This document shows, piece after piece, positions 14,079 to 59,880 of a stretch of DNA of 64,000 bases. A program made the position numbers and the translations under genes. Numbering within the stretch: the stretch's first letter is position 1; every line of letters starts with the position of its first letter. This stretch comes from Eledone cirrhosa. Taxonomy: Eukaryota. The stretch covers positions 26,722,001-26,786,000 of the forward strand of contig OZ024750.1 in assembly GCA_964016885.1 (NCBI GenBank), in the 5' to 3' direction. Under the pieces are notes generated by a model. The model did not search any database. It was given only the letters and a program-made list of their open reading frames with translations, and was not told the DNA's origin.

Positions 14079-14570
14079 CTAGGGCGGGTAAAATTCCCGA
14101 GATCCATGGACGAGTTCTCTCCAGCGGTCTCTGTCCCTCGTTATCGCTGCCATGTCCTGTATCTCCAAAAGACCAGTGTCTGTCCTTAGGGCATCAACAT
14201 ACGTTAACCCTGGTCTTCCTCTTCCAGTGTGTCCATGTAGGGGGTCACACAGGAGCACTGAGTGCAATGTCAACTCTGGATGTCGGTGAGCATGTCCAGC
14301 TAACCCCAGACTCCTCTGCGTCACTTTTGAGCTGACTTTTGGGAGGCTCCCATACAGCTCTGAGTTTTTCATCCTCAGTGTATACTGATTAACGTTCAGC
14401 GCCACCCTCAGCATTCTCGTGTAGCAGCCATCCACCATCTGAGTGAGTCTCTTGGTCAGTGTCCAAGTCTCAGACCCGTACAGCAGCACAGACTCCACTA
14501 CAGCAATGAAGAGGCAGATGTTCAGGTCTTTACGAAGGTCCGACTTCCACACTGATCTCAAGCTGTGGCA
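14079..14570 (-). mobile_element. 5'-truncated RTE-group LINE, C-terminal part of the RT ORF
   Basis: ORF contains VESVLLYGSETWTLT, YTRMLRVALN, LAGHAHRH, GRGRPGLTYVD and RDRDRWR, typical of the post-RT region of RTE/RTEX LINEs. Confidence 0.85.
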
Positions 14571-14829
14571 CGCCGCCCCGGAGAGCCACAGCTTGAGATC
14601 AGTGTGGAAGATCTATGCTAAGATCAATGCTAAGATCTGCTAATTAATATCGAAAAACAAATGTGGCACCTCATGGCCGTTACAATACCAGTGAGTGTGG
14701 GAGCACTGGGTATGATCAAGAAAGTACTGCACACATATTGAGAAGAGCACTATCTCTGTAAGAAGGATATCCCTCCATTTGGAAAGAAGCAGAACTCAAA
14801 GCAAGTTTCGAATCATCATCATCATAATA

Positions 14830-21419: not shown

Positions 21420-23293
21420 TTGAGCAACACTAGAACGCTAGAGAACGTTAATAGAGAAAAGAGAGAGAAAGAGGTAGATATTAACGTTATATCTGCTTCT
21501 GCTACTATGGACGTTGCCATAGATACAACTGTCACTAAAGAAAAAAATATATTAACGTTTGAAAATTTTACAATTTCTACCGCCGAAGCGGAGAAAAATG
21601 ACAATAACACACAGGAAAACACAGCAAAAAAACCCATTGACATACATATACATGAAAAAGACATCAACAACTCTACAGATACATCTACACATAAAGTTTC
21701 CAACAACGATAACATCATCATCAACAACAACACCACACAAAAAAAGAAAATGTCTTTCGGAGACACAGTCAACAAGAAACAAGATTTTATAAATCTTGAT
21801 ATCTCCAACGCAAGAGATATGCTCTAGCAAGGGAGAAAATTTGTAACTTTCGAAGAAAGAGGTGGGTTTAGAATTAACTCACCCCTTGAAATAAAGGAAG
21901 ACACAAACCGCCGATCAGTCACTTTTAGGACTGTGTCAAATCCGTCAAGAAAACCGACATTTGTTAATCAAGCAGATATAGAAGATTCTTTCAAGGAAAT
22001 TCTAGCAAATGTCGATTTTCTCCAGCGAGGAAAACAGTACGGAAGTGTTTCCGTACTGTTTAAAAGCGAGGCACTCGCCCCAAAAAACTCTGTGACACCA
22101 ATAGTGTCAAAAGCATACACCTTTTTCCCTACATACATGGGGAAAAGGACACAAAAAATAAAAATAAAAACATACCTCCAAGCATTAACATCTGGTGGAT
22201 CTTGGCTGGCTTCGTAGAGCCAGAAACAGACATAATACTTTCGATACGAAAATCTATTCGACAAAGGTGGGCGGGCACAGATTTGGAGATTCTGTTGCAA
22301 ATGAAACCGGAGAGAATCTCCAAAATACCCGAAAGAGTCGTTATTGATAATAACAACAAAATAAACATTTCGGTAGAAGGACGAACATTTCATTGCTTTC
22401 GCTGTGGTAGCACAGCTCACCTAAAAGCCTCTTGTCCACAAACACACAACAACAACATCATAAAAAAAACGCTATTACCAACACCAACACCAAAACAACC
22501 ACCACCACAAGTACAACGACAGACGAAACGAGCAACCACACCAAAACAAACAGACACTCAACCAACAACAACAGAAAAAACAGAGACAACACCCCTGAAG
22601 AACACATCCCCACTCCATCCCACTCCATCAAACACTAACACAAACACACATACCGAAACACCACCACCACCACACAACATACCCTTACCCCACACACCTG
22701 ACGATGATTATTCATCGACGGATGAAGCTGCTTCTCCTTCTTTAAGTGAAGAAGAGGGAGAACCGCGGAAATCTAAAAAACAAAAAAAGAGACACCACAA
22801 AACCCCCAAAACTCCAATCACCAACACCAACACACAACCACAGACACAAACAACAACACAAACAACACCACAGTCAAACATCCCCCTATCAGCAAAACCA
22901 GCACCAACACGACCCCAAACACAAGCACCCACCATAAAAAGAAAACTCCCGGATGAACAACAAACTAAAACAATACAACAAAAACACAAACAACAATATG
23001 CATACATCAACACAAACAACAAGAGTTTGATGGAGGTCATCTCCTAAAACCCCAAGGTGGAGACGGAGGGCAAAACTTTCGTCAATGCAGAATCGTCTCC
23101 ACACCTTAAACTTATAAGGGTTTCTATGGAAACCTATAAAGACCTAAAAATTAAATTTTCACAGGACGTGGGCAACCCCTGCCACAAACCCATCAACCGC
23201 GACCTGTTGAAAGGTTTCCCCACCCCACTCAACACCCCACCCAGCACCCAAATGGAGATTGAACAACCCGATCTCCAGGAAACGAAAAGGTAA
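21420..23293 (+). pseudogene. Tx1 ORF1 (gag-like), interrupted
   Basis: Contains CFRCGSTAHLKASC (CX2CX4HX4C) and a T/P/Q-rich tail; stops at ~21825 and ~23045 and a frameshift near 22170. Confidence 0.82.
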
Positions 23294-23334
23294 GTGCACC
23301 TTTCGTCCTTTTTCTCCAAATTTTCTTCACCAAC

Positions 23335-26300
23335 ATGGCTGGTTTACGAGTTGGAACCGTGTATGTGCGTGGCCTAGGGATGCCGTGGAAACAGGGCCAA
23401 CTTTTAAACGACCTTAGGTCACACAGTATGGATGTGATAGCCATCACCGAGTCCAGGATCCACAAGAGGTAGCAACTAACCCCCATCTTCGACGACTTTG
23501 AGATCTACGCATCTCTCTGTCAGCCAGGAGGTGGAGGTGGAGTGGCTGTTATGTTTCGGAAGAACCTGGACGTCGGAGTACAGCAAGTACACTTGGACCC
23601 GGAGGGTAGACTGGTAGTCCTAGACGTGAACAGTATCGGAGGTGGAGCCTTCAGACTGTTGGCCGTTTATGCCCCGACCGGGCAATCGCAATCACGGCCA
23701 GACTTCTTTAAGCGTCTAGAGTCTTTTCTGGGAACGTCTCGCTCCTTACTTTTAGTGGGGGACTGGAATGGTATCCTAGATGCACGATGGGACTATGTGG
23801 GAGCATGTCCCAGTAGAGCGGGGTGCAACAGCCTCAAAACTTTAATCGGCCAATTCCAACTGGCCGATAGGTATCGACTGGATTTCCCGACTGCACCACA
23901 GTGGACGTGGGTAAACCGCAGTGGGACATCTAGATCGTATTTAGATGGGTTCTTCATTAGAGAAAGGGACAAGGATATGTTAAGCTGTCCACGAATGCAC
24001 ATGGTTGCCTATTCAGATCACAAGTTAGTCGTCTGCTTAGTCAACCGTGATAGAATACATAGACAGGGTCCCGGATACTGGAAGCTGAACGTGTCGTTGC
24101 CGGCACGTAAAGCTTACAGTGAACGGATAAGTAGACTAGTCAAGCAACAGTTAACGGGAGCCATCGTCAACAATAGATGGTGGTACTCTCTCAAGAAAGC
24201 AATTAGAATAGAATCGATAGGGTATAGCAGAAAGTTAGCCTTAGAGAAAAACAGAATAGAAAGAGAACAAGTAGCCAAGGTAGAGGAGGTACTTAGAAGT
24301 GGCAACGCGGCTAGAGTGTTAGCGTCGAGAACGGCACTGGACCAGTTCTTCGATGCGAAACACGAAGGCTGCGTGGTCAGAAGCAAAACACGTGCTCTAG
24401 GAAACGAAGCAGCGAAAGCTGTCAGCTGGGCCCGAGTGGCGGAGGCAAAAAGTGGCAACAAGTCCACGATTCGGTCTTTGAAAGACCAAAACGGACGCGT
24501 GCTACTTGACCCCAAGCACATGTGCGCGGCCTTTCAGCGGCACTTTGCGCGACTGTTTGAGCAAAACGACGGTGAGCCGAACGGGGCAATGGACTTTAGT
24601 TCATACTTCGACGGCCTGCCGCGTCTCTCGAACACGGATGCCGAGTTCTGCGGAAGACCGATCAAGCTCTGGGCCGCTGCGGGAAACGCAAGTCACCCGG
24701 TATAGATGGTCTACCCTACGAATTTTACATAGGCATGCCGGACTTGTTCTCTGGCGTCCTCGAAGCCGTCTACTGCAATTGGCAGCAGAACGGGAGAATT
24801 CCCAGTTCTGCAGGCAAGGGCGTAGTAACGCTGATCAGGAAAGACGAGAACAAGGGGGACAAAATTAACAACTTCAGGCCCATAACTCTGCTCAACACAG
24901 AGTTAAAGATTTTGGCCAAGATGCTAGCGACGAGGTTGGCGCTTGTCGTCGAGAATCTGGTAGGGAAAGCGCAAACGTGTGCAATCCCGACCAGGTCCAT
25001 ACACGACAACCTCCACCTCATGCGATACATCATAGAGAGGGTGGGTAGTAAACCCGGCTTCGGTGGGGCTCTGATCAATTTGGATCAGTCTAAGGCATTC
25101 GATAGGGTCGACCATCGATACTTGGAAGCGGTTCTCAAGGCGGCCGGTTTCGGTCCCGTGTTCAGAGGATGGATCGAGGCGATGCACACCAGCATCTGCT
25201 CGAGGGTCAAGGTGAACGGCTACCTATCGGAGCCGTTCGCAATCACGCGTTCCATTCGACAGGGATGCCCTCTCTCCTCCATTCTGTATGTATTGACTCT
25301 AGAGCCACTACTGCGGAAATTGGAGCTGTTGCAGGGCATCCCTCTAGAACCGGGACTGCGCAAAGCGGCGTCGGCTTATGCCGACGACGTAACGGTAAGG
25401 GTGTCGAGCCCCTCGGAAATTGGGGTGATCGGCAACTTACTGAATGAATACGAAACGCTGACGGGAGCAAAACTAAACCCAGACAAGTCTGTCGGTTTGC
25501 AACTCGGTACGTGGAGAGGCAAACCGATGACATCCGACAGCGTCGTTGGACGCTGGACAGACGGACCGGTGAAATTGCTCGGGGTCTGGTTCGGTCCAGA
25601 CCTCCAGGTGGGGAAAAACTGGAACGAGGTCACGGCCAAGGTGTTTGCAATCACTCAGAAGTGGGCAGAGTGCAAACTGTCCTTGAAAGGTCGAGCGGAG
25701 GTGGCGAACACTTTCATAGCGTCCGTCATCTACTACCGCTTGACTGTCGTGCCTTGTCCCCGTGAACACCTCGCCAAGATGGAACGCATGCTCTTCCAGT
25801 TTCTGTGGAAGAAGCAGGCTCCGCTGGTGAGGAGATTCGTCTGCTGTCAGCACCCTTCGAACGGAGGGCTGGGAATGCCGTGGTTGATGATGCGCAAACA
25901 TGCGCTGAGGCTGCGGCATCTCCAGGTATTCCTCACCGACCCCCAACCGGTGTGGGCACCGTTTGTGAGACAGGCTTTCCCACAGCTCGTCTCGCTAACG
26001 GAGCTGCAGTCCTGGGTGAAGAAAAGACCGAAAACGATGGCCGCCTGGCACATTGAATGCGCTCACAGTCCTCTGGCAAGCGGGCGCAGCAATCAGTGGA
26101 GACTCCACCTCGACATTCTATAGAGGGATTGTACGTTACAAGGGCGACGACGTGCTCGGAGAGACTCTGGGCGTCGAAGACGATGAGCTCACCAGTCTGT
26201 TTGGTAGGACTTTCCGCCCGGGACCTATGGACAACTTCCAGAGGTCCCTGGCCTGGCAGTGCTACCGAGGAGCTCTACCGGTTCGTGACAAGATCTACAT

Positions 26301-26754
26301 ACACGGACGCCCTGGCAGGGATCCTTCCAAGAGGACGGGTCCAAGATGTGCGCAGGACATTGAAACAGTTCTGCACGCAATTGTACACTGCCCGGGCGTA
26401 AGCGACCTGTGAAACTATGCAGAACAACTGCTGTCGCGTATGGGACAAATACAGTTGACTGCCGAGTCCATAGTAAGGATCAAACCGCCAGACTCTTTCA
26501 AAAACGAAAGAGAGGCGGTTTTCCTCTGTACGGTGGCTATGGTGAAAGAAGTTATATGGTGGACGAGGTTGAGAGGACTGAGGACAGATGCCTTTCTCTC
26601 CGGACAACAATTGATTCCCTTCCTTAAGTATCACTTTAGAAGGAGAATCAGGGTGGAGAGAGAGGCACTGCACCCCAGTAAATTTACTGAAAGGTGGGTG
26701 AATGAAGCGAAAATGGCCCGAGTGATTGGGCCTTCTCTGTTTATAAGCCTATAG
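23335..26754 (+). pseudogene. Tx1 ORF2 (AP endonuclease + reverse transcriptase + C-terminal Cys/His motif), interrupted
   Basis: MAGLRVGTVYVRGL, VYAP, GDWN, SYLD, YSDH, GYWKLN, FRPITLLN, DQSKAFDRV, RQGCPLS, YADD, ETVLHAIVHC; stop near 23470, deletion/frameshift near 24670-24700, frameshift near 26055, stop near 26410. Confidence 0.92.
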
Positions 26755-30482: not shown

Positions 30483-30527
30483 ATTGCCCTGATGAGTCCT
30501 TAATAGGACGAAATATTGTTGGCTAAT
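30483..30527 (+). ncRNA. Minimal hammerhead ribozyme
   Basis: GCC-CTGATGA-GTCC(TTAATA)GGAC-GAAA-TATTGTT-GGC; the half copy at 28503-28524 (-) retains GAAACATTGTT. Confidence 0.78.
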
Positions 30528-30762: not shown

Positions 30763-30833
30763 TATTTTATTATGCGCATTTCAAAAACAAACATCATCAA
30801 GCAATAATATTTGTGTTTTCATCAGATAAAACA
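30763..30833 (-). ncRNA. Hammerhead ribozyme
   Basis: TGTTTTAT-CTGATGA-stem II-GAAA-TGCGCATA-ATAAAATA. Confidence 0.72.
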
Positions 30834-31819: not shown

Positions 31820-32345
31820 TTAACTGTATACTTTGTGAAAAGTTCTATGGAATTTATGCAGGCAGATAGAAAACAAATCTGAGCGTCTGTTTATTATAGA
31901 ATCTAGGTTAGAGATAATGGTAAATTTTTCATTTAGGCAGAGATTACAGATTTTAGATAGAGAGCTGTTCAAGTATGAGGATGCAGAAGAAATCTTTTTC
32001 CAAAAGATGTTATATTTAATGTTTTTGTCTTTTAAGGACCATATGAGTTCTGAGAGAGCAGTGTTAGTTCTTTTAAGTTTGTATTTGAAAGATGAATGAT
32101 GATTATAGAGACGAGCTTTAAAAGAGGTGGAAGTGCAGCCAAAATAGGTGAAGGAATTGGTGCTAGTTATAATTTTACATTCATAAATTAAGTTTTTATC
32201 GAGGCAATGGTTGTTGAGAGGACATTTATTTTTGATGCGGCAGTTGCAATTAGAGAGATTATTAATGAGTGATCTAGTGTTATCTATAGAAGGAATTGGA
32301 TTGGAGAAGTTGTTTGCGATAGGAATAATAGGAATAATAGTTTCT
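31820..32345 (-). pseudogene. Penelope-like GIY-YIG endonuclease C-terminal fragment
   Basis: CNCR..KCPLNNHCL..NLIY...YFGCT...FKARLYNH..SF...TALSELIW...CNLCLNEK...INRRSDL...CLH; homologous to 40760-41202. Confidence 0.85.
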
Positions 32346-32705
32346 TGATTTAGAGTTGGATTATGAACATTTAGCGAAGTTAAATGTTCATAATCCAACT
32401 CTAAATGTTCATAATCCAACTCTAAATGTTCATAATCCAACTCTAAATCACGCTTTTATATCTTTTACAAATATACACATCTTTTTACCTTATTTCAGTA
32501 TAATGCACTGGGTAATTGCTGGCCTTGTGCCAAAAGTAGAAACAATTATATTATACAATTTACTCATTCTATGTCGTTAGCGGCCCTCTATTTTTCTTCT
32601 ATTTTATCCTTTTTTCCATTCTTCCTTTTTTCTTTTTTAATTTCTAATCTTTAATCTGTAACTTTTACTTCTCAATTACTTCTTAATTCATATTATTACT
32701 CACAA

Positions 32706-33602: not shown

Positions 33603-33673
33603 TATTTTATCTGATGAGAACGCAAGTATCATCCCATGATGATATTTGTTTTTGAAATGCGCATAATAAAATA
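33603..33673 (+). ncRNA. Hammerhead ribozyme
   Basis: Stem I TATTTTAT/ATAAAATA; CTGATGA; stem II GCAAGTATCATC/GATGATATTTGT; GAAA; palindromic ATGCGCAT stem III; triplet ATA. Confidence 0.8.
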
Positions 33674-33701
33674 CATGGAACTATTTTAACCATCTTTTGA
33701 T

Positions 33702-33739
<38 letters not shown>

Positions 33740-33817
33740 GATAAGCAGAACAAGTAAAATTCAATCAATTTTTCAAAATACATTAAAAAATATAATATAA
33801 ATATTTACCTCTTCTAG

Positions 33818-33902
33818 TGGCCCTTACTGATCAGTTTCGCTTTGTAAAACCTCATAAATCCGATGGATTCATGATGGAAAACCAAAGCTCATCAGAGAAG
33901 CA
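33818..33902 (-). ncRNA. Hammerhead ribozyme, unit 1
   Basis: GCTTCT-CTGATGA-GCTTTG...CAAAGC-GAAA-CTGATCA-GTA^AGGGC; stem III palindrome ACTGATCAGT. Confidence 0.82.
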
Positions 33903-34302
33903 TTTTCCCATCCTAGGGCTAAACGTCCCAGGAACGACAAAATATACAACCTCCTGCCAGCTAATAAAGGTCTGAAAGGTCGTAAAAGTGACCCGTATGT
34001 AAACTGGACCGAAGTAAAAGCGGGAAAATCAAAGACTTGCTGTCTACAATTACTACTAAAGAAATAGCAGCCTAGTAAAGCAACAGATTTGTTCTCAACG
34101 GACGGAGAAAAAGGTATAAGTTAATATGTCCAGGGATACTAGGTACCCCTAGAAATACATAGGTTGTCTATGATTCAGGGTTGTTCAATGGTGTTAATTT
34201 GATACACCAGAACTTTAATATTAAGATAAGCAGAACAAGTAAAATTCAATCAATTTTTCAAAATACATTAAAAAATATAATATAAATATTTACCTCTTCT
34301 AG

Positions 34303-34387
34303 TGGCCCTTACTGATCAGTTTCGCTTTGTAAAACCTCATAAATCCGATGGATTCATGATGGAAAACCAAAGCTCATCAGAGAAGCA
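34303..34387 (-). ncRNA. Hammerhead ribozyme, unit 2
   Basis: Identical to unit 1, offset by 485 bp. Confidence 0.82.
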
Positions 34388-35612
34388 TTTTCCCATCCTA
34401 GGGCTAAACGTCCCAGGAACGACAAAATATACAACCTCCTGCCAGCTAATAAAGGTCTGAAAGGTCGTAAAAGTGACCCGTATGTAAACTGGACCGAAGT
34501 AAAAGCGGGAAAATCAAAGACTTGCTGTCTACAATTACTACTAAAGAAATAGCAGCCTAGTAAAGCAACAGATTTGTTCTCAACGGACGGAGAAAAAGGT
34601 ATAAGTTAATATGTCCAGGGATACTAGGTACCCCTAGAAATACATAGGTTGTCTATGATTCAGGGTTGTTCAATGGTGTTAATTTGATACACCAGAACTT
34701 TATATATATATATATAAATGTAATCTGAGTTTTTCGAATATTAATAATAACATTCGATTTGTTTGAAATTATGCAAACAAGCCTGAATTTTATTGGCATG
34801 TCAGTGGAATGAACACTTCATTCTTGCTCCTGTGTTGGCATGCGAACAGAACTGCAGACACTAATGTTTCTGGGTATCACCCTTCATCCTTCATGTCCAT
34901 GTTTGCGTATATTTAGCTGTAATAATCTCCCGGTCTTCTTCCTTCTATTTCTTTTTTCTTTTTTCCTTTCTCTTTCTCTTTCTTCATATTTCTCTGTTTC
35001 TTTCTTCATCTTTCTTTCTTTTCTCTACCTTCACTATTTCTATCCCCACTCTCTTCTTTCTATCTGTATCTCTATTATTACTACTATTTTGATGTGATAG
35101 TTTGAACTCGTAAATTTGCCGGTTACGTATTTATTTGTATTTTTTTCTCTCGTTCGTCTTTTCTCCTCCCCTCCTTTCCATCTATCCTCCTCCTTCTGTG
35201 TCTCTCTATATCTTTATTATTAATATTAATATTGATGTGGTAATTTGAATTTGTAAATTTACCGTTACGCATATTTCTTTTATTTTCTCTTGGTCTCTGG
35301 CGAAATGATGGAGATAACATGTATTATAAATTGAGTGACACTGCCTTCTGTGTTTAGCAATTTTTAGACAACTCTATCATAGAAACAATTGTTAGACTGT
35401 AAATAAATTTCCTTGTTTGTACTGTGACCATGTTATTCAATTTTTCAATTTTATTACTCAAAGATATACTTACACAGGAATACAAGTGATGTCATAAACT
35501 CGTCATACACGTAAACTTCTTGTTGAGTCTTTCAACGCAGTACGCTTAAACTCTTCATGATAAGAATTTTTCACAACCTCTAATCGGATTACCTTTAATG
35601 ATAACTTGTTAT

Positions 35613-35704
<92 letters not shown>

Positions 35705-36211
35705 TAATAGGATAACAGTTTTTCGAATATTAATAACATTCGATTCGCTTGCAATTATGCAAACAAGCCTCAATTTTATAGCCATGACAGTAGAATGAAC
35801 ACTTCATTCTTGCTCCTGTGTTGGCAGACACTAATGTTTCTGGGTATCACCCTTCATCAGTACAGCCTACTGTTCTCCTGCAAAACCCTCAGAGCCAGTG
35901 AAAATATATGCTATTTTCAAAAATACGCAGTGACTCATTGGCCTCATTTGCATATCAGCAGACTGGCCAGTCAGTTTCCTGTATACGAGAGATAAATGGC
36001 CAAAATTGCCAAATTTAAATAAAAGAGACAATTTATATATACAAATATATATACAATAAAGCATGCAGCTCCATTCTCCTTCGCTGTCTCCTCCCCCCTC
36101 ACTCTATGTCCCTCTTTCAATCTACTCTCTTACCACCACTATCTCTTTCTCTCTATCTTTCACTCTCTCTTGTGTGTGTGGGTGCATAGTGGGTGCAGGT
36201 GTGCGCGTGCA

Positions 36212-38341: not shown

Positions 38342-41300
38342 TTGGAAATAATGAACGATGGAAAGCCTTCCACTTCGACCGTGCGGGTGCTGCTGACGCC
38401 GGAAGTACAGCAAACAGATATGGATTTACCACCTGCAAGAACCCTCGACACAACATCCTGCTGGACCCTTTTGAGAAAGATCTATTTAACCTCGTCAGGA
38501 GCATTAAATTCAATAAGCATTATAGACACAAGAATAATTTCCTCACAAAATTAGCAACAACTATAAAAAAATTTTAAAATAGCCACCTCTTACATGTTAT
38601 GTCTGACAAAACTAAAAATTTATACACCATAACTTCTGAAACTACAACTCTTTCCTTCTTAAGGAACTTAATAAAAACTATAAAAAAAACTTGAGCTCAT
38701 AGTGATGTCAAAGTTGTCTGTTCTGTCTTTTCTAGTCCAGAGTGCTTCGTTGAATTCAATGATGGTCTGCCTAGCCATAAGTATGATGTCAATCTCATTA
38801 TTGGTTATATCAGAGTTGGTGCTGGCGAGGGTTAATGCTTTGTTGAGCAGTTAAGGGGTAGTTGAAGCGTAATAGCTGTTAATTTCAAATTGGATGAACC
38901 TCATATATTCCTTGGACCTTAGATCGGAGAACCATATAATGACTTGGCCGGTGTTGGACCACAGCTTGTAGGTGATATCATCTCGTAGCCCAGGGATGAT
39001 CCTATCAAGGATGTTCTTACTGATACGATCCAAGTCGGATGTGGTTGGGCTTATAAGTCTAATAGATGGGTTCTCTATAAAGTTTGGCTTGTGATCCTTG
39101 AGAGAAAACCTTGGGGTTGTAGGTACATAAGGGTGGGTAAATCTATCCAGATGCAAGCCCTTAACCAAAGCCTGGGCTTTTCGGTTAAGTAAGTTTACAC
39201 TGGAAGGTATAGTTTTTTTAATAGTTTTTATTAAGTTCCTTAAGAAGGAAAGAGTTGTAGTTTCAGGGGTTATGGTGTATAGATTTTTAGTTTTGTCAGA
39301 CATAACATGTAAGAGGTGGCTATCTTTAAATTTTTTTATAGTTGTTGCTAATTTTGTGAGGAAATTATTCTTGTGTCTATAATTTATTGTGTCTTATTGA
39401 ATTTAATGCTCCTGACGAGGCTAAATAGATCTTTCTCAAAAGGGCCCAGCAGGATGTTGTGTGGAGGGTTCTTGCAGGTGGTAAATCCATATCTGTTTGC
39501 TGTACTTCTGGCGTCAGCAGCACCCGCACGGTCGAAGTGGAAGGCTTTCCATCGTATTCTTCGGATGAAAGAGTTGACACTCTGTATTAGGAGTTTGAGG
39601 TATGTCTTCCTGTCCGGGATAGGTATGGACTTAAGTGACTTTGACATCACGATGGGCTCAAGTGACTCTGCGCAAATCACCGATTTAGTTGGAATATACC
39701 TATTACATAACATCAGAGTCGAAATCCAACCATTGCAAGGCGGAATATATAGGGACGACGCCCTATTTGCAGTCCACAATTGCACTAATCGAGGCATTGA
39801 CTTGCTCAAAAATCAATTACACAGATTGTTTAAAAATAACGGTCTCTCTATCACCATCGAGCCGAACCATAAAGTAGTAAACTTCCTAGACGTTACCCTG
39901 GATCTTAACAATAACCTATATTACCCTTACCATAAACCAGGTGAAATACTTACATATATTAGCCCACACTCTAACCACCCACCGGCAGTCATCAGAGCAC
40001 TAATCAAATCTATCTCATATAGGATCTCCATGCTATCAGCAAATGAGGAGATATTTATAAACCACGCAGCATATTATACTAAGGCTCTTTCTGAATCTGG
40101 TTATGAACAGTCCATTTACTACATACCTAAATGCCATAACACAGTCATTCACCACAACCATAATAAACTTAACACTAGAACTAGAAAGACCTTAGCATAT
40201 AGCCAGATTCGCCGGAATTTTAGCAGTAACAGCACTTATACAGGGAACCTTAATAGTGGCAGTGGCCTGCTTCCCATTTCAAGTAGCAAATTAAAAATCA
40301 ACCCTAGAATAGGAATGAGCAATGGGATGACAAATAACAAACGCCCAGGTAATAATAACCCTATGAACCCCCCTACCAACTCCACTAGTACCCCTAGAAG
40401 GAAATGGCCTAGAAATATCACCTGGCTTAACCCCCATTCTCATCTAATCTAGCCACTAATATCCCTAAACGGTTCTTCTCTATCCTATCTAAACATTTCC
40501 CCTCCAACCATAGATATTACAAACTCTTTAATAAAAATAACATTAAAATCTCATTCTAAACAACACCTAACCTAGCTAGCCACATCGCATTTAGTAACCA
40601 TCATAAACTAAGACAGTATAACTCCCACACCGCGGTACCCCCCCCCCCCATCAAATACACCACGCCACTACACCAATACTTACTCTAGTAGCACACCCAC
40701 ATCTAATCCTTCTAGCACTGACCAACCGCTTAGGTTAAACAACCCTACTCTCACTAACGGCAGAAGTAACTGCAACTGCCGTTACCCTAATGCATGCCCA
40801 CTAAATGGACATTGCCTGACACCCAACATAGTCTATAGGTGCATGGTTAAAACTGCTTCGCAGACCAGCTCTTATATCGGGTCTACCTATAACCTTTTTA
40901 AAATACGCTATAATGCGCACTCTTTTTCCTTCCGAGACCCTAACAACAGATGTTCGACATCTCTATCTAGGCTCATTAAAAACCTTAAATTAACCAACAT
41001 TGAACACTCACTAACATGGGATATCTTGCTTAGGGCCCAACCGTTCAATGGACGAAGAAAATCTTGTGAACTCTGTCTTACCGAAGCATATTACATAACT
41101 CTATCACGACCACTACTGATTAACGATAGAACGGAGGTAACTATTAGCTGTCAACATCGAAGGGCTAATTCCTTCGCCAACAGAATATTTGACCCAACAT
41201 AGTCATCTAGCCCCATTTTTACTTGTAGCTAATAAGTTAAATAGCTATAAATAACTTAGATAATTATAAGTTACCTCCCTTACATTGTCTCTCAATTAAA

Positions 41301-41820
41301 AAATAAAAAAGTTAGCACTTAACTATAAACTACCCACAATTTCTAATTTCTCGAGGAGTTACTTCCCCTGAAACCACCCTCTAATTAGTAAGGTAAATAT
41401 GTCCATTGGCGGCCATCTTGTTACCCATAGGAAGATCTCACACAATGCAGCCTATGGGTAACAAAATGGAAGAATACTGCTCCACTATGGCAGACAAGTA
41501 ATATAACCAGGACACCATAGTGAAATACCAACATATGGAACATTACATTTATGTAACATTCTTTCCTTATTTTAATTTATATTCCTTTTGAAGTTCCGAT
41601 GAGCTGCTCTATTTTTACCTATGTTAATTATTTTCAACTGAACCAGATCAATAATGATATATAATCATTTGATCCAGAAATATTATATGGAAAAGCGAAA
41701 CAATTGTAAACGGACATTATTATTATTATTCTCTACGCTCCTTACATCAAACTAAAATATGTTGACAATCTTTTAATAATGTCTTCCTTGTGAAATCTGT
41801 GATCTTGTTTTACTTACTAA
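38342..41820 (+). mobile_element. Penelope-like element (RT + C-terminal GIY-YIG, Nematis-like by recalled motifs) with inverted 5' third
   Basis: Minus piece 38691-39622: PIPDRKTY..LI..RIRWKAFHF, SDKT.NLY, LKDHKPNF...RLISP. Plus piece 39637-41202: FDITMGS, YRDD, VNFLDVTLDL, SNHPP, CNCR..CPLNGHCL, YIGST, CELCL.E. Confidence 0.9.
41593..41711 (+). ncRNA. Degenerate hammerhead in the PLE 3' repeat
   Basis: GTT-CCGATGA-GCT...AGC-GAAA-CAATT-GTA^AAC; U4 is replaced by C and stem II is long. Confidence 0.55.
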
Positions 41821-41916
<96 letters not shown>

Positions 41917-42506: not shown

Positions 42507-42638
42507 AATGCCGAATAGGAAAGTTTGGTGTTAATTGTATAAATACATGCTATTGCATCAACAACACAAACTGTGACATCCTTAAGGGAACATGTTCAGA
42601 TGGATGTTCTGCAGGTCATACTGGTGACAATTGCCAAG
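42507..42638 (+). CDS. EGF-repeat exon 4
   Basis: tttcag|...|gtatat, 132 nt, phase 1-1; ECRIGKFGVNCINTCYCINNTNCDILKGTCSDGCSAGHTGDNCQ. Confidence 0.86.
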
Positions 42639-42789
42639 GTATATCATAAACTTGTTACATAATTACGATAATTACTATATACACACAGGCATATATATAT
42701 GTGTATTATGTGTTTGTGTGTGTGTGGGTGTGTTGCGGATGCGGGTGTGTATGTGCATGTGTTTGTGTGTGTGTGTGTTACACATATAT

Positions 42790-42896
42790 TGTAATGTGAC
42801 ATGCTATTGTATCAACAACAAATACTGTGATAAGCGAAATGGAACATGTTCATATGAATGTTCTGCAGATTATATTGGTGACAATTGCCCAGAAGG
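42790..42896 (+). pseudogene. Truncated EGF exon 5
   Basis: CNVTCYCINNKYCDKRNGTCSYECSADYIGDNCPE; the acceptor and first ~10 codons are missing and there is an extra G before the donor GT. Confidence 0.75.
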
Positions 42897-42903
42897 GTAT
42901 TTA

Positions 42904-42958
<55 letters not shown>

Positions 42959-42962
42959 AACT

Positions 42963-43019
<57 letters not shown>

Positions 43020-43025
43020 TTGCGT

Positions 43026-43060
<35 letters not shown>

Positions 43061-43253
43061 TGTGTTTGTGTGTTTGATGTTTAATATAGAAATCGCTTCT
43101 ACTGGACTAGAATAGTTTCATCCAAAGAAATCAGAGAGCAAGAATGAAGTGTTTGTTCATTCTACTGATATGGCTATAAAATTGAGGCCTGTTTACATAA
43201 TTGCAAACGAATCGAATGTTATTAATATCCGAAAACCTCAGATTACATTTATA

Positions 43254-44765: not shown

Positions 44766-44836
44766 GATGTGTTGGTGTAATGGTAGCACAGTGGTCGCGA
44801 TAACCACAGATGTGGGTTCGACTCCCATGTACGTCA
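44766..44836 (+). other. tRNA-like cloverleaf (pseudo-tRNA or SINE head)
   Basis: Acceptor GATGTGT/GTACGTC, D arm GTGT/GCAC, anticodon arm GTGGT/ACCAC, T arm GTGGG-TTCGACT-CCCAT; loop CGCGATA lacks U33 and purine 37. Confidence 0.7.
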
Positions 44837-55772: not shown

Positions 55773-58700
55773 AGTCAACGCGATCAGTCGCATATTTTGG
55801 CGTGGGAGACTATTTATTAAATTTAAGATGAATACTATCTCGGACAGTAATGCAACAACTACACTCAAGTTGAATAACTGGTTATTTGTCTAACTATATC
55901 TTCTGAAGACACCTTTTATTCGTATTCGTAGAGATATCCCACTAATTAGATAATTCATTTTACAAGGATTTGCTACAAACAGTATGGCTGAACACATCAA
56001 CAACAATATTAAGGTAGTACCGAAGACAAATAACAAGGAAGGTAAACAAACTATATTCAGTTGTAGCTACAGAAGAAACCGAATTATAAATCGCATTTCT
56101 CTTGGAGTTGCGAACTTCATAATGATTTATTTAATTGCTAAAAAATGCCAAAAAACAATCCCTCCATTGGCTATATGAACAGAATGAAGCTACACTGGTA
56201 CGAAATACACCCAGAACTAAATTATTTCACAGCGAAACAATTACGCCAACAAGCGACTTTTGTTGAACGTAAAAATAAGATAAATATTATTAATTGTAAG
56301 TCCCTCACAACAAACATGTTATCAATAACACGTGCTACAGGTCGCCATGCTACTAGATTTCCTAGCAGCCAGGTCGAACAGCGCCTTGAAACAATTATGC
56401 CTGTAAGAAACTTGACACCATCTGTACCATCTAAGTCTACCTCGAATGCTGGGGAAAACACTATCGATAATAATATTAATCGCAAGAAATAATAATAATA
56501 ATCGAAGAAATTTGACACCACGTGTACCATCCGAGTCTACCTCGACTGTTGTGGAAAATACTATCGATAATGATAATAATCAAAAGTATAAACAATTGAA
56601 ATTCTCCCTCAACGAAATCTTCCAGAGAGAAATTAATTCATGTATAAATATCTCTCTTGCTGAACGTTTTAAAACGACAATGTTTAAAAAAACAACAAAT
56701 AATGAAATATTACGTGTTATTGACGAAATAGGGGATGAATATTTACGATGGATAAAAACCCCAACACATTGGCAAATCAACGCCTGTTTATATGCCTTAG
56801 TAACGACAGTGAAGCATTATCTTGGTGATAGCAGAGATATTAACAAGAACAGAACACCACCAAAAATACCATCATGTATAACTAAAATAGAGAAAAGATT
56901 GCTGAACTATGAAAAAACATAGGATATGTGACAATGCTCCTTACATGCAAACAAACACAAAAAACCTCACTCAACAAAGAGTGAAATATTAAATAGAGAG
57001 GATGTTTGGTAACAGTAGAACCAGAACTCTCCAATATAAGCTGATCACCATCAAACAAGAATTGAGAGCTGTTAGTGAAAAACGCCGATACCTGAAGAAG
57101 GTAGATGAGAGAAAAGTGCTTAATAAAATATTCAGACGAAACCAAACATCAGTCTATAGAGATATGAAGGGCAAAATAATAAGTGTCATTGAGGCCCCAT
57201 CCCAGAAAGACATAGATTCCTTTTGAAGCAAAATATTGTGTGAAAAGAAGAATTTCAACCAATATGCAGTGTGGCTAAGAGAAATACGAAAGAATTATTG
57301 CTCCTACACTACAACAAAAACATACGAAATAAGTGAGGGTACCATTGCGACTGTAATAGGAAAACTCCAAGATAAGAAAACACCAGGAAGAGACACGATT
57401 GTCGGCTACTGGTACAAAAAACTGATATTCTATCGTAGGTATCTTACTGACCTCTACCAACATGTTCTTAAGGGAGATACACTTATACCAGAATGGTTGA
57501 CATTAGCACAAACATTACTGGTCCCCAAGAACAAAGACACCCACTTCACAAAAAAATAACGGCCCATTGCATGCCAGAAACTGATACATAAGATGTATAC
57601 AGCCTGCCTGAACCTATTCCTCCAAGATCACTGTGAAAATAATATCATCACGGATGAACAAGTAGCTGGAAAGAAAGGAGTTTGGAGATGTGCTGAACAA
57701 CTCCCAATCAACAAAACTGCGATGTCGGAGGTGCGTCAACTTAGGAGGAATATGGCTACAGTCTGGCTGGACTACAGGAAAGCTTTCGATTCTGTTCCCT
57801 ACTCTTGGATGATAGAGGCCCTCCAACTTGCTAAATCCCAGACATTATTATCAGAGCCATAGAGAGGATGTCTTCTTCTTGGGCTACTATCCTAAGGTTA
57901 AAGACAGAGAGGGAGGATTCTATTTTCACTGATAAAATAAAATATTGCAGGGGTATATTTCAGGGAGACAGTCACTCAGTGATATTATTCATCTTGTCAC
58001 TAAACCCCTTGTCCTTTCTGCTCAAGAAATGTGAGGGATACCTCATTAGCTCACAGGAGGACAGAAATACGAACCTAACCCATAATTTCTTTGTGGCCGA
58101 TCAGAAACTCTATGCCAAGATCATGGATGGGATGAAGAAAAATCTTGACCTGGTTACAGCGTTCTCAAAGGATATAGGAATGGAGTTTGGCCAAGATAAA
58201 TGCTCATACATTACTGTAAAGCGGGGAAAAACAACAACCCAATCTAGCTACATTGTCATCAATGACCTAACTGTTTCACCGATATCTGATGAGGACAGCT
58301 ACAGATACCTGGGGTTAGATGAGAACATATCCTATAATGGTATCTGTAATAAAGAACGCGTAACCAGGGAATACTACACCCGATTAACAAAGATCTGGTC
58401 ATCGGAACTCTCTGCGCAAAACAAAACAGTGGCTCACAATGTGTTTGCTGTGTCTGTCCTAACACCAACGTTTGGAATACTCAATTGGACGATAGATGAA
58501 ATCCCAGCAGTTGATGTTGGAACTCGAAAGACACTAAACGACACCGGAAACTTCCACATCAACAGTGACATAGGCCGCCTTTACTTGAAACGTAAGCAGG
58601 GAGGCAGAGGCCTAACATCAATTCAGACAACATTTGAATGTCGCTTTATATCTCTCCGACAACATCTACGAACGTCGAAGCATAGGAGCCCGTTTGTCGA

Positions 58701-59880
58701 GAAAGCCTATCTACTTGAAACAGATAAGATCATGAGAGTTGGGAAGAAACTCTTCGAGAGATATTCCCTGTGTGATAATCAAAAACTCACAATCAGGGAA
58801 GTCGCTCAGCAGTATCGCAGTGAATCCATGGATGAAAAACTACATACTTATCAGCAAAAACTCATGCATGGATATGTTGCCAGGAAGCCCCAGAGTGAGA
58901 GTAATATAGATAAGGAAAGTAGTCTATCTTGGACCAACAACCGTTCTATTGGCTCCCACTTTGTAGATACGCTTTTGCAATCCAAGAACAGGAGATTAAC
59001 ACGAAATAACTGATTCACAAAAGAGATAGGGATGCAGGCAAAACACCTAGATGTGATAACAAGTGCAGACTCTGCAGAGCTAACATCGAGGATATCACCC
59101 ATGTCATGAGCAACTGTCCAAAGATGCCATCGCGGTACTATCTACCTATGAGGCATAATGTAGTGGCCAAAACACTGTACAATGCAGTTCGTAAAAAAAG
59201 ATAGCCCCGATAATAAACACATTAAAAGCTACAGCAATATGGAAGACATCCATGTATATAATATGAAAGAGTACTGGTGGAATGTTCCAGTAAAACCCCA
59301 ATAAAATTCAGGCATAACAGACCAGATATCATGATATGGGACAGGGAGAAGAAAGCATGCACACTAGTGGAAATTAGCTGCCCAGCAGGTGCCAATATAA
59401 TATCAAAGATTAGTGAAAAGGAGAATATTTATGCAGAACTGTTGAGAAATCTGCAGATACTCCACCCTGATTACACCTTCAGATACATGCCTGTGATTAT
59501 TGGGGCACTGGGGTATGTTAGTAACTGCCTCAATACAAATCATGAGAAGCTTGGCTTCACAGGAACAGAAAGAACACAACTAGTTAGGAAATTATAAGTA
59601 CAATCCATTAATGGAAGAGTAAAAATATGTAAAACATTCCAAAAATGTTGCATCTGATAACTGTATATACACATGTACAGATGCAAAGCATATACACATG
59701 CACACATACAACTCAAAACATACACACATACACATACAATAACATCCATATCTACACATGCATGCATACATACATATCTACCTAGTTGATGTGTAAATTC
59801 CAATGAGATAGACTTGTGTCTATGTTAGAAACTGTCTCTATTGGTAAAACTTTGTGAAATTATAAAACAGAAGAACATAC
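55773..59880 (+). mobile_element. Near full-length, decayed R4/Dong-like non-LTR retrotransposon
   Basis: KTPGRD.I..YWYK, RPIAC, WLDYRKAFDSVP, GIFQGDS, FFVADQKLY (decayed YxDD), YRYLG, RLYLKRKQGGRGL, KCRLC..EDITH..SNC, RPDIMIWD..LVEISCP, PVIIGALG; multiple stops and frameshifts. Confidence 0.88.

Follow-up and report, generated by a model that had tools for sequence, protein, structure and literature searches.

A dispersed tandem hammerhead repeat of Eledone cirrhosa, a probable non-LTR retrozyme with Penelope-like insertion ends

We analyzed a stretch of 64,000 nucleotides from the genome of Eledone cirrhosa (assembly GCA_964016885.1, contig OZ024750.1, positions 26,722,001 to 26,786,000; hereafter the window) that contains a head-to-tail pair of 485-bp hammerhead-bearing units inside a (TA)n microsatellite. 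This insertion is one copy of a young dispersed family inside a non-coding superfamily. The repeat very probably belongs to the retrozyme class, and its insertion was in all likelihood driven by Penelope-like elements (PLEs). The complete account that we favor, a retrozyme inserted into a TA microsatellite by a trans-acting Penelope-type enzyme that probably copies a small circular RNA, is on balance a likely one. The class is already known, and therefore the gain lies in support for a mechanism rather than in a new kind of element. The family offers countable genomic evidence on the link between PLEs and retrozymes, namely two fixed 3' ends (sites A and B), a strict pairing of A with B, and variants and edits common to opposed arms; this evidence is useful but indirect. 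With its 485 nt and its mapped start sites, the unit also provides a minimal substrate on which the proposal that PLEs mobilize retrozymes becomes directly testable, and the family documents the persistence of a non-coding lineage over ∼50% divergence.

The tandem repeat and its family

The window insertion comprises 970 bp, or 2.00 units, and a period-485 comparison of the assembly found zero mismatches over 33733-34217 (Table 1). In the unit numbering used here, position 1 corresponds to 34221 on the minus strand and the predicted cut follows position 397; the insertion begins at unit position 5 and finishes at unit position 4. The preliminary description had reported two head-to-tail units of 485 bp at 33732..34701; the units are indeed exactly identical, but these limits are one base off. 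Its remarks on the (TA)n surroundings and on the non-coding nature of the units are both borne out, the longest ATG-initiated ORF in the dimer having 34 aa.

Table 1. Features of the retrozyme insertion in the window
Feature	Position	Strand	Details and basis
Whole insertion	33733..34702	-	5' end 34702, 3' end 33733; period 485
(TA)n target, 3' side of insertion	33704..33732	.	Sequence reading
(TA)n target, 5' side of insertion	34703..34716	.	Sequence reading
Cut-to-cut monomer (predicted unit RNA/circle)	33825..34309	-	485 nt, 36% GC; circular fold
Type I hammerhead, upstream copy	34306..34384	-	Predicted cut 34310/34309; covariation
Type I hammerhead, downstream copy	33821..33899	-	Predicted cut 33825/33824; covariation
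Parts of the downstream hammerhead	core 33895-33889, stem II 33888-33839, palindrome 33835-33826	-	Sequence reading
End site A (unit position 4)	33733..33736	-	92 nt past cut, fused to (TA)n
'Tail' between sites A and B	34115..34217	-	103 nt; second copy 34600-34702
Conserved hairpin immediately 3' to site A	34183..34213	-	Second copy 34668-34698

A 24-nt pattern of the hammerhead core matched exactly at 603 sites in the 3.0 Gb genome (0 for the reversed control), and exact junctions of site A with (TA)n were found at 484 (1 for the control); these figures answer the question of copy number raised in the preliminary description with several hundred dispersed copies. A pattern derived from the hairpin of the unit gave 4633 matches (control, 4), and a genome search with the unit itself, in which 40 of 1891 candidates were scored, gave at least 185 matches. 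The loci studied form three sets: 39 top loci plus the window, which are biased toward near-identical copies, 51 further contig-1 loci taken from the hammerhead list, and 40 loci from the list of ends, biased toward A ends.

The cut-to-cut monomer is identical at 16 loci, the window included, and therefore the amplification is recent. Older subfamilies go down to about 79% identity, and a sister family with a unit of 486 nt stands at about 53-56%. The 20 aligned units measure 457-525 nt and are 50-99% identical to the window unit; ATG ORFs in the 20 relatives have 26-100 aa. L175:2654-3139 (+), L189:5904-6006 (-) and L224-L243 exemplify sister retrozyme families, which have units of 457-525 nt and share both the hairpin and the two ends; in their oldest forms stem II is closed by a non-canonical pair. 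TTCCCGC and GGGTCAC blocks at unit positions ∼195-245 (33977-34027 in the window) are conserved in ∼16 of the 20 units outside the stems; they may resemble E2F-type sites and might represent an internal promoter.

In genomic terms the family qualifies as a non-LTR retrozyme, because its units are tandem and non-coding, carry a hammerhead each, are dispersed and were recently amplified. The same features support the preliminary identification as a candidate retrozyme. The family is also dispersed and mobile with a GC content under 45% (36%), as is required of a retrozyme. According to the accessible text of PMC7229834 and 10.64898/2026.07.22.740005, the animal non-LTR retrozymes of corals, Mytilus (350-390 bp) and axolotl (Rtz331/Rtz353) likewise consist of tandem non-coding units with a type I hammerhead each, and share with the window family the low GC content, the palindromic stem III and the co-occurrence of PLEs. 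The 485-nt unit lies inside the range of 51-972 bp in the available part of the 2026 survey (10.64898/2026.07.22.740005), although it exceeds the 170-400 nt given for invertebrate retrozymes. Its hammerhead differs from those described for animal retrozymes by the 50-nt stem II and the weak stem I. Circles have been demonstrated for published animal retrozymes; for the window family they are predicted. Searches of literature listings, together with the papers cited here, turned up no report of a cephalopod retrozyme or of retrozyme insertion ends.

The hammerhead ribozyme

As claimed in the preliminary description, each unit has one minus-strand type I hammerhead, of which all elements from CUGAUGA (at 33895 and 34380) to GUA were found, and the motif positions agree with the two cuts it had predicted. 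The 50-nt stem II is G-C closed (GCUUUG/CAAAGC), and the GAAA, the palindrome ACUGAUCAGU and the GUA triplet are also present. Stem I is weak in the window subfamily, with 4 bp (two of them G.U) followed by a C.C mismatch; it is weakest in this subfamily, and a perfect 5-bp stem occurs in several relatives. The Rfam hammerhead models left the window motif unscored, both at the gathering threshold and at an E-value of 10.

Among 17 family members, both sides have changed in 7 of the 15 pairs, and these changes are spread over all three stems. In the 17 sequences 92.5% of cells are paired, compared with 31-53% when the sequences are slid, with kinship inflating the shuffle control. Stem III is palindromic or nearly so across the relatives, in several forms. 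When a different family sharing this stem III but having a shorter stem II was sought by pattern, 2 matches were obtained, both of which are deletion variants.

When the monomer is folded as a circle, the sense strand reaches a z-score of -5.6 against shuffles and the antisense strand -0.3. The single hammerhead fold lies 8-14.5 kcal/mol over the minimum in folding energies that leave tertiary contacts out, and it is predicted to be unfavorable owing to base pairing between the core and the palindrome. Folding energies of -56.4 kcal/mol for the double hammerhead versus -56.0 kcal/mol for two monomers support the earlier suggestion that the palindromic stem III favors dimeric cleavage; a misfolded cofold lies below the double hammerhead, at -61.5 kcal/mol. 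In these models the monomeric ribozyme fold is thus predicted to be blocked and the dimer to be feasible. The consensus fold of the whole unit is weak (-29 kcal/mol for 20 units, limited by the alignment). Cleavage only as a dimer through a palindromic helix III is an established property, as the available portions of PMC4209133 and PMC7229834 report, and in the accessible text of 10.64898/2026.07.22.740005 one of nine predicted frog retrozyme dimers cleaved in vitro and the other 8/9 did not.

Insertion ends and the candidate mobilizer

The 3' ends of the insertions fall at unit position 4 (site A) or at position ∼107 (site B; 101-113 in older copies), 103 nt apart, and are fused to (TA)n, while the 5' ends are variable. 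The ends were counted at 128 loci, from which L171, L172 and L177 (duplicates) and the repeated copies in L155 and L157 were left out; a stray 38-bp match in L073 was dropped, and L120 and L121 were merged. One-armed insertions account for 89 loci (77 ending at A, 11 at B, 1 elsewhere) and two-armed, head-to-head insertions for 39, among which are 33 of type A+B, five of A+other and one of B+other, with neither A+A nor B+B. Hence all 33 classable back-to-back insertions pair A with B (0.5^33 ∼ 1e-10). Both end sites recur in the sister family, whose opposed pairs are A+B in 4 of 4 cases (30 loci). At the window locus site B corresponds to 34115 and is unused.

Where site B is TATA-like, insertions end there at 19 of 25 loci, compared with 7 of 32 where it has the CTA form (Fisher p 6e-5); for contig 1 alone the figures are 4/4 versus 5/22 (p 0.008). 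This contrast, which represents one change in one lineage, suggests that target pairing at the B site helps its use. The 5' ends are enriched at positions 384-402 around the cut (18/160 arms, p 6e-5), most of them a few bases ahead of the cut and inside the palindrome. A second, larger cluster occupies the AT-rich positions 403-437 (19 of the 85 arms longer than one unit). Both clusters may be explained by microhomology of the palindrome and the AT-rich segment without cleavage.

The 5' truncation and the inverted truncated copy seen at the two-armed loci match those of PLE insertions. PMC8557442 characterizes PLEs by partial tandem copies, a truncated copy in inverted orientation and, at one of the ends, a tail of 30-40 bp, and PMC11167929, in its available part, reports for the anole PLE that both strands are cut and extended, with two internal start sites bounding the tail. 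We infer that site A is a start of reverse transcription and that the same chemistry is at work in the window family, with a tail of 103 nt. As far as these two sources are available, both systems have two fixed 3' ends, a tail at one end, a head-to-head truncated arm and a hammerhead upstream of the start sites, and the (TA)n target is shared with Hydra and Naiad elements. The window family differs from PLEs in having no ORF and in the length of its tail (103 nt versus 30-40 bp). Its start sites are TA-like over 2-4 nt each, whereas those of the anole PLE are reported to be non-homologous to the target. The non-autonomous Chlamys element MRC1 (PMC8557442, available part), a PLE derivative, resembles the window family in its multicopy head-to-tail insertions. 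However, Chlamys elements like MRC1 have 3' ends similar to those of their autonomous partners, while only a short weak motif connects the window unit with an autonomous family, and most Chlamys elements are without canonical hammerheads. Mobilization of animal retrozymes by PLEs through circular RNA has been proposed with the mechanism left open (PMC7229834, 10.64898/2026.07.22.740005), and the accessible text of both sources has no mention of insertion ends, TA targeting or two-armed insertions.

The window itself contains a Hydra-type PLE at 38349-41830, recognized by RWK and DKT motifs, a CxCX5C linker, a C-terminal GIY-YIG domain and a (TA)n target (motifs as given in the available part of PMC8557442); Pfam reported 0 families for five PLE fragments. 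Its reverse transcriptase (RT) has about 37,000 candidates in the genome. The hammerhead of this PLE also has a long stem II and a palindromic stem III, and the element likewise has two TA-fused ends. The sequence around its first end is similar to site A together with the hairpin behind it, with a score of 25.5 over 85 nt that was reached by 2 of 1000 shuffles, and the best windows among 2344 fall at that end site, in one family and in a comparison chosen after the likeness had been seen. A joint retrozyme/Hydra pattern gave 1844 matches (control, 12), and the first 100 listed all come from these two groups. The Hydra family is not young: the best pair among 30 sampled copies is 96.8% identical, and it is older than the youngest retrozymes. 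By this likeness, the Hydra clade is a candidate for the mobilizer lineage of the 485-bp unit, and the hairpin 3' of site A is a candidate protein-binding signal.

The PLE at 38349-41830 shows a head-to-head inversion, and most sampled copies have the hammerhead core CCGAUGA, not CUGAUGA. At two loci (L112:3397-4211 and L179:4110-5023) a retrozyme arm lies head-to-head with a Hydra-type fragment with no TA between them; they were not counted as co-insertions, because the fragments belong to two different PLE families, both of them abundant in the genome.

RNA template and alternative explanations

At least one cut site is crossed by 142 of 160 arms, and two or more by 59; therefore a circle or an uncut multimer served as template, and not usually a cut linear monomer. 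Three observations speak for a circle. At L054 all 5 units that cover the position, distributed over the two opposed arms, carry the variant 151G>A, which the rest of the assembly lacks, and at L051 the variant 402C>T occupies 4 of 4 hammerheads and is found at this locus only. Subfamily-diagnostic bases are unmixed in all 22 arms with at least two full monomers. In the hyperedited copy at L187, 21 of the 28 differences are A>G, and where the two arms overlap they have two of three A>G changes in common, which speaks for an RNA step and for one molecule feeding both arms; it is uninformative on circles, because both arms are shorter than one unit. An A>G excess is absent from the family as a whole (89 A>G versus 103 T>C). 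In this copy (L187:4501-5043) the cleavage triplet itself now reads GUG. Variant patterns recur in long arrays (with period 4 in L057, irregularly in L120, in units 3 and 6 of L038), and therefore local recombination can supply part of the array length and homogeneity. Array length is uncorrelated with age (rho 0.05, 73 arms). We consider a circular monomer the somewhat more probable template.

The leading alternative is a non-autonomous, PLE-dependent element whose template is an uncut read-through multimer transcribed from an existing array, so that no circle is needed; the hammerhead would act at a different step or weakly, and homogeneous arrays would come from homogeneous donors and later recombination. 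It agrees with the report that the anole PLE inserts mainly uncut RNA in vitro (PMC11167929, available part), with the predicted block of the monomeric fold, with the shortness of most arms (64 of 73 in the contig-1 sample are under 2 units) and with the periodic variants, which indicate local duplication; one haploid assembly may also miss the donor of an apparently private variant. However, it would require for L054 a donor of at least four units, all with a base found nowhere else; no mixing of diagnostic bases is seen in the 22 long arms, and ribozyme and palindrome are conserved over 50% divergence. We regard the uncut multimer as unlikely, though deserving consideration.

Two further readings dispense with a retrozyme. 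If the unit were a mere pseudo-LTR (pLTR) of an autonomous Penelope-like element, the arrays would be its 5'-truncated copies, and the PLE-like ends, tail, inversions and TA target, together with the weak likeness to the Hydra-clade pLTR around site A, would be expected. Yet as many as 20 units follow each other head to tail with no ORF in between, and at loci L031-L121 and L154-L243 a search with Hydra-type queries only found no PLE ORF attached to the upstream side of the unit in sense orientation. The same queries found no RT plus GIY-YIG ORF between pLTRs in the loci read, and for an autonomous partner in cis only family members were seen at 37 contig-1 and 3 contig-2 A-end sites outside the hammerhead list, at 20 hairpin sites and at 30 sister loci. 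The sister families keep the same closed, non-coding unit of 457-525 nt. The preliminary description had named linkage to a PLE ORF as a check and a catalogued Penelope pLTR as the outcome that would overturn it; with no joined ORF in the loci examined and a unit that stays closed at 50-99% identity, the retrozyme reading stands, and we consider the pLTR highly improbable. A conventional satellite or a duplication introduced by the assembly, with spread at the DNA level, would fit the identity of the two window units, the finding of no spanning read in 8 runs (mostly of unrecorded type) and the local recombination in long arrays. It is at odds with the fixed 3' and variable 5' ends at a TA target, the A-to-G hyperedited copy, the folding signal on the sense strand only and the fractional unit numbers of arrays on at least 10 contigs, and can be given hardly any weight.

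Under the favored account of a retrozyme inserted by a PLE enzyme in trans, a transcript through two or more units would be cut by hammerhead pairs joined via the 10-bp palindrome. The lone monomer would stay inactive, with the core CUGAU pairing with AUCAG of stem III, and the 485-nt monomer would then be ligated. A PLE protein with RT and GIY-YIG domains, most likely of the Hydra clade, would bind near the hairpin after site A and cut (TA)n on both strands, with one cDNA primed at A and the other at B. Each cDNA would run for 0.1 to several turns, and microhomology would then connect it either with the target or with its partner cDNA. The window copy would be a one-armed, A-primed product of two turns, in which the TA-like site A served for the junction of the 5' end. 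The most specific version, a rolling-circle double target-primed reverse transcription in which the dimer-dependent hammerhead keeps the 485-nt circle uncut, a pair of Hydra-clade proteins binds it at a hairpin that the autonomous element also has and copies it from two fixed sites onto both ends of a cut (TA)n, and the TA match at B sets the frequency of the second arm, is offered only tentatively.

Several other elements were noted in the window. The left flank (33605-33703, +) consists of the 3'-terminal part of a different hammerhead element, with a palindromic stem III, which ends in the same (TA)n; another copy at 30831 (-) lies ∼1 kb downstream of a GIY-YIG ORF (31820-32455). The right flank (34717-34888, -) is a truncated third hammerhead element, which is very abundant and also present at 35860 (-). 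Three insertions thus converge on one (TA)n microsatellite. Two more hammerhead motifs, of other families, are located at 30489 (+) and 37366 (+). Broken LINE-type ORFs (endonuclease plus RT, and RT fragments) were found at 22064-26412 (+), 57835-59013 (+) and 14079-14612 (-), and a tRNA-like match at 44766-44836 (+) scored 44 bits with Rfam. Finally, a short cysteine-rich, EGF-like reading frame at 42628-43077 (+) is perhaps an exon, in which case the retrozyme may lie antisense in a host intron.
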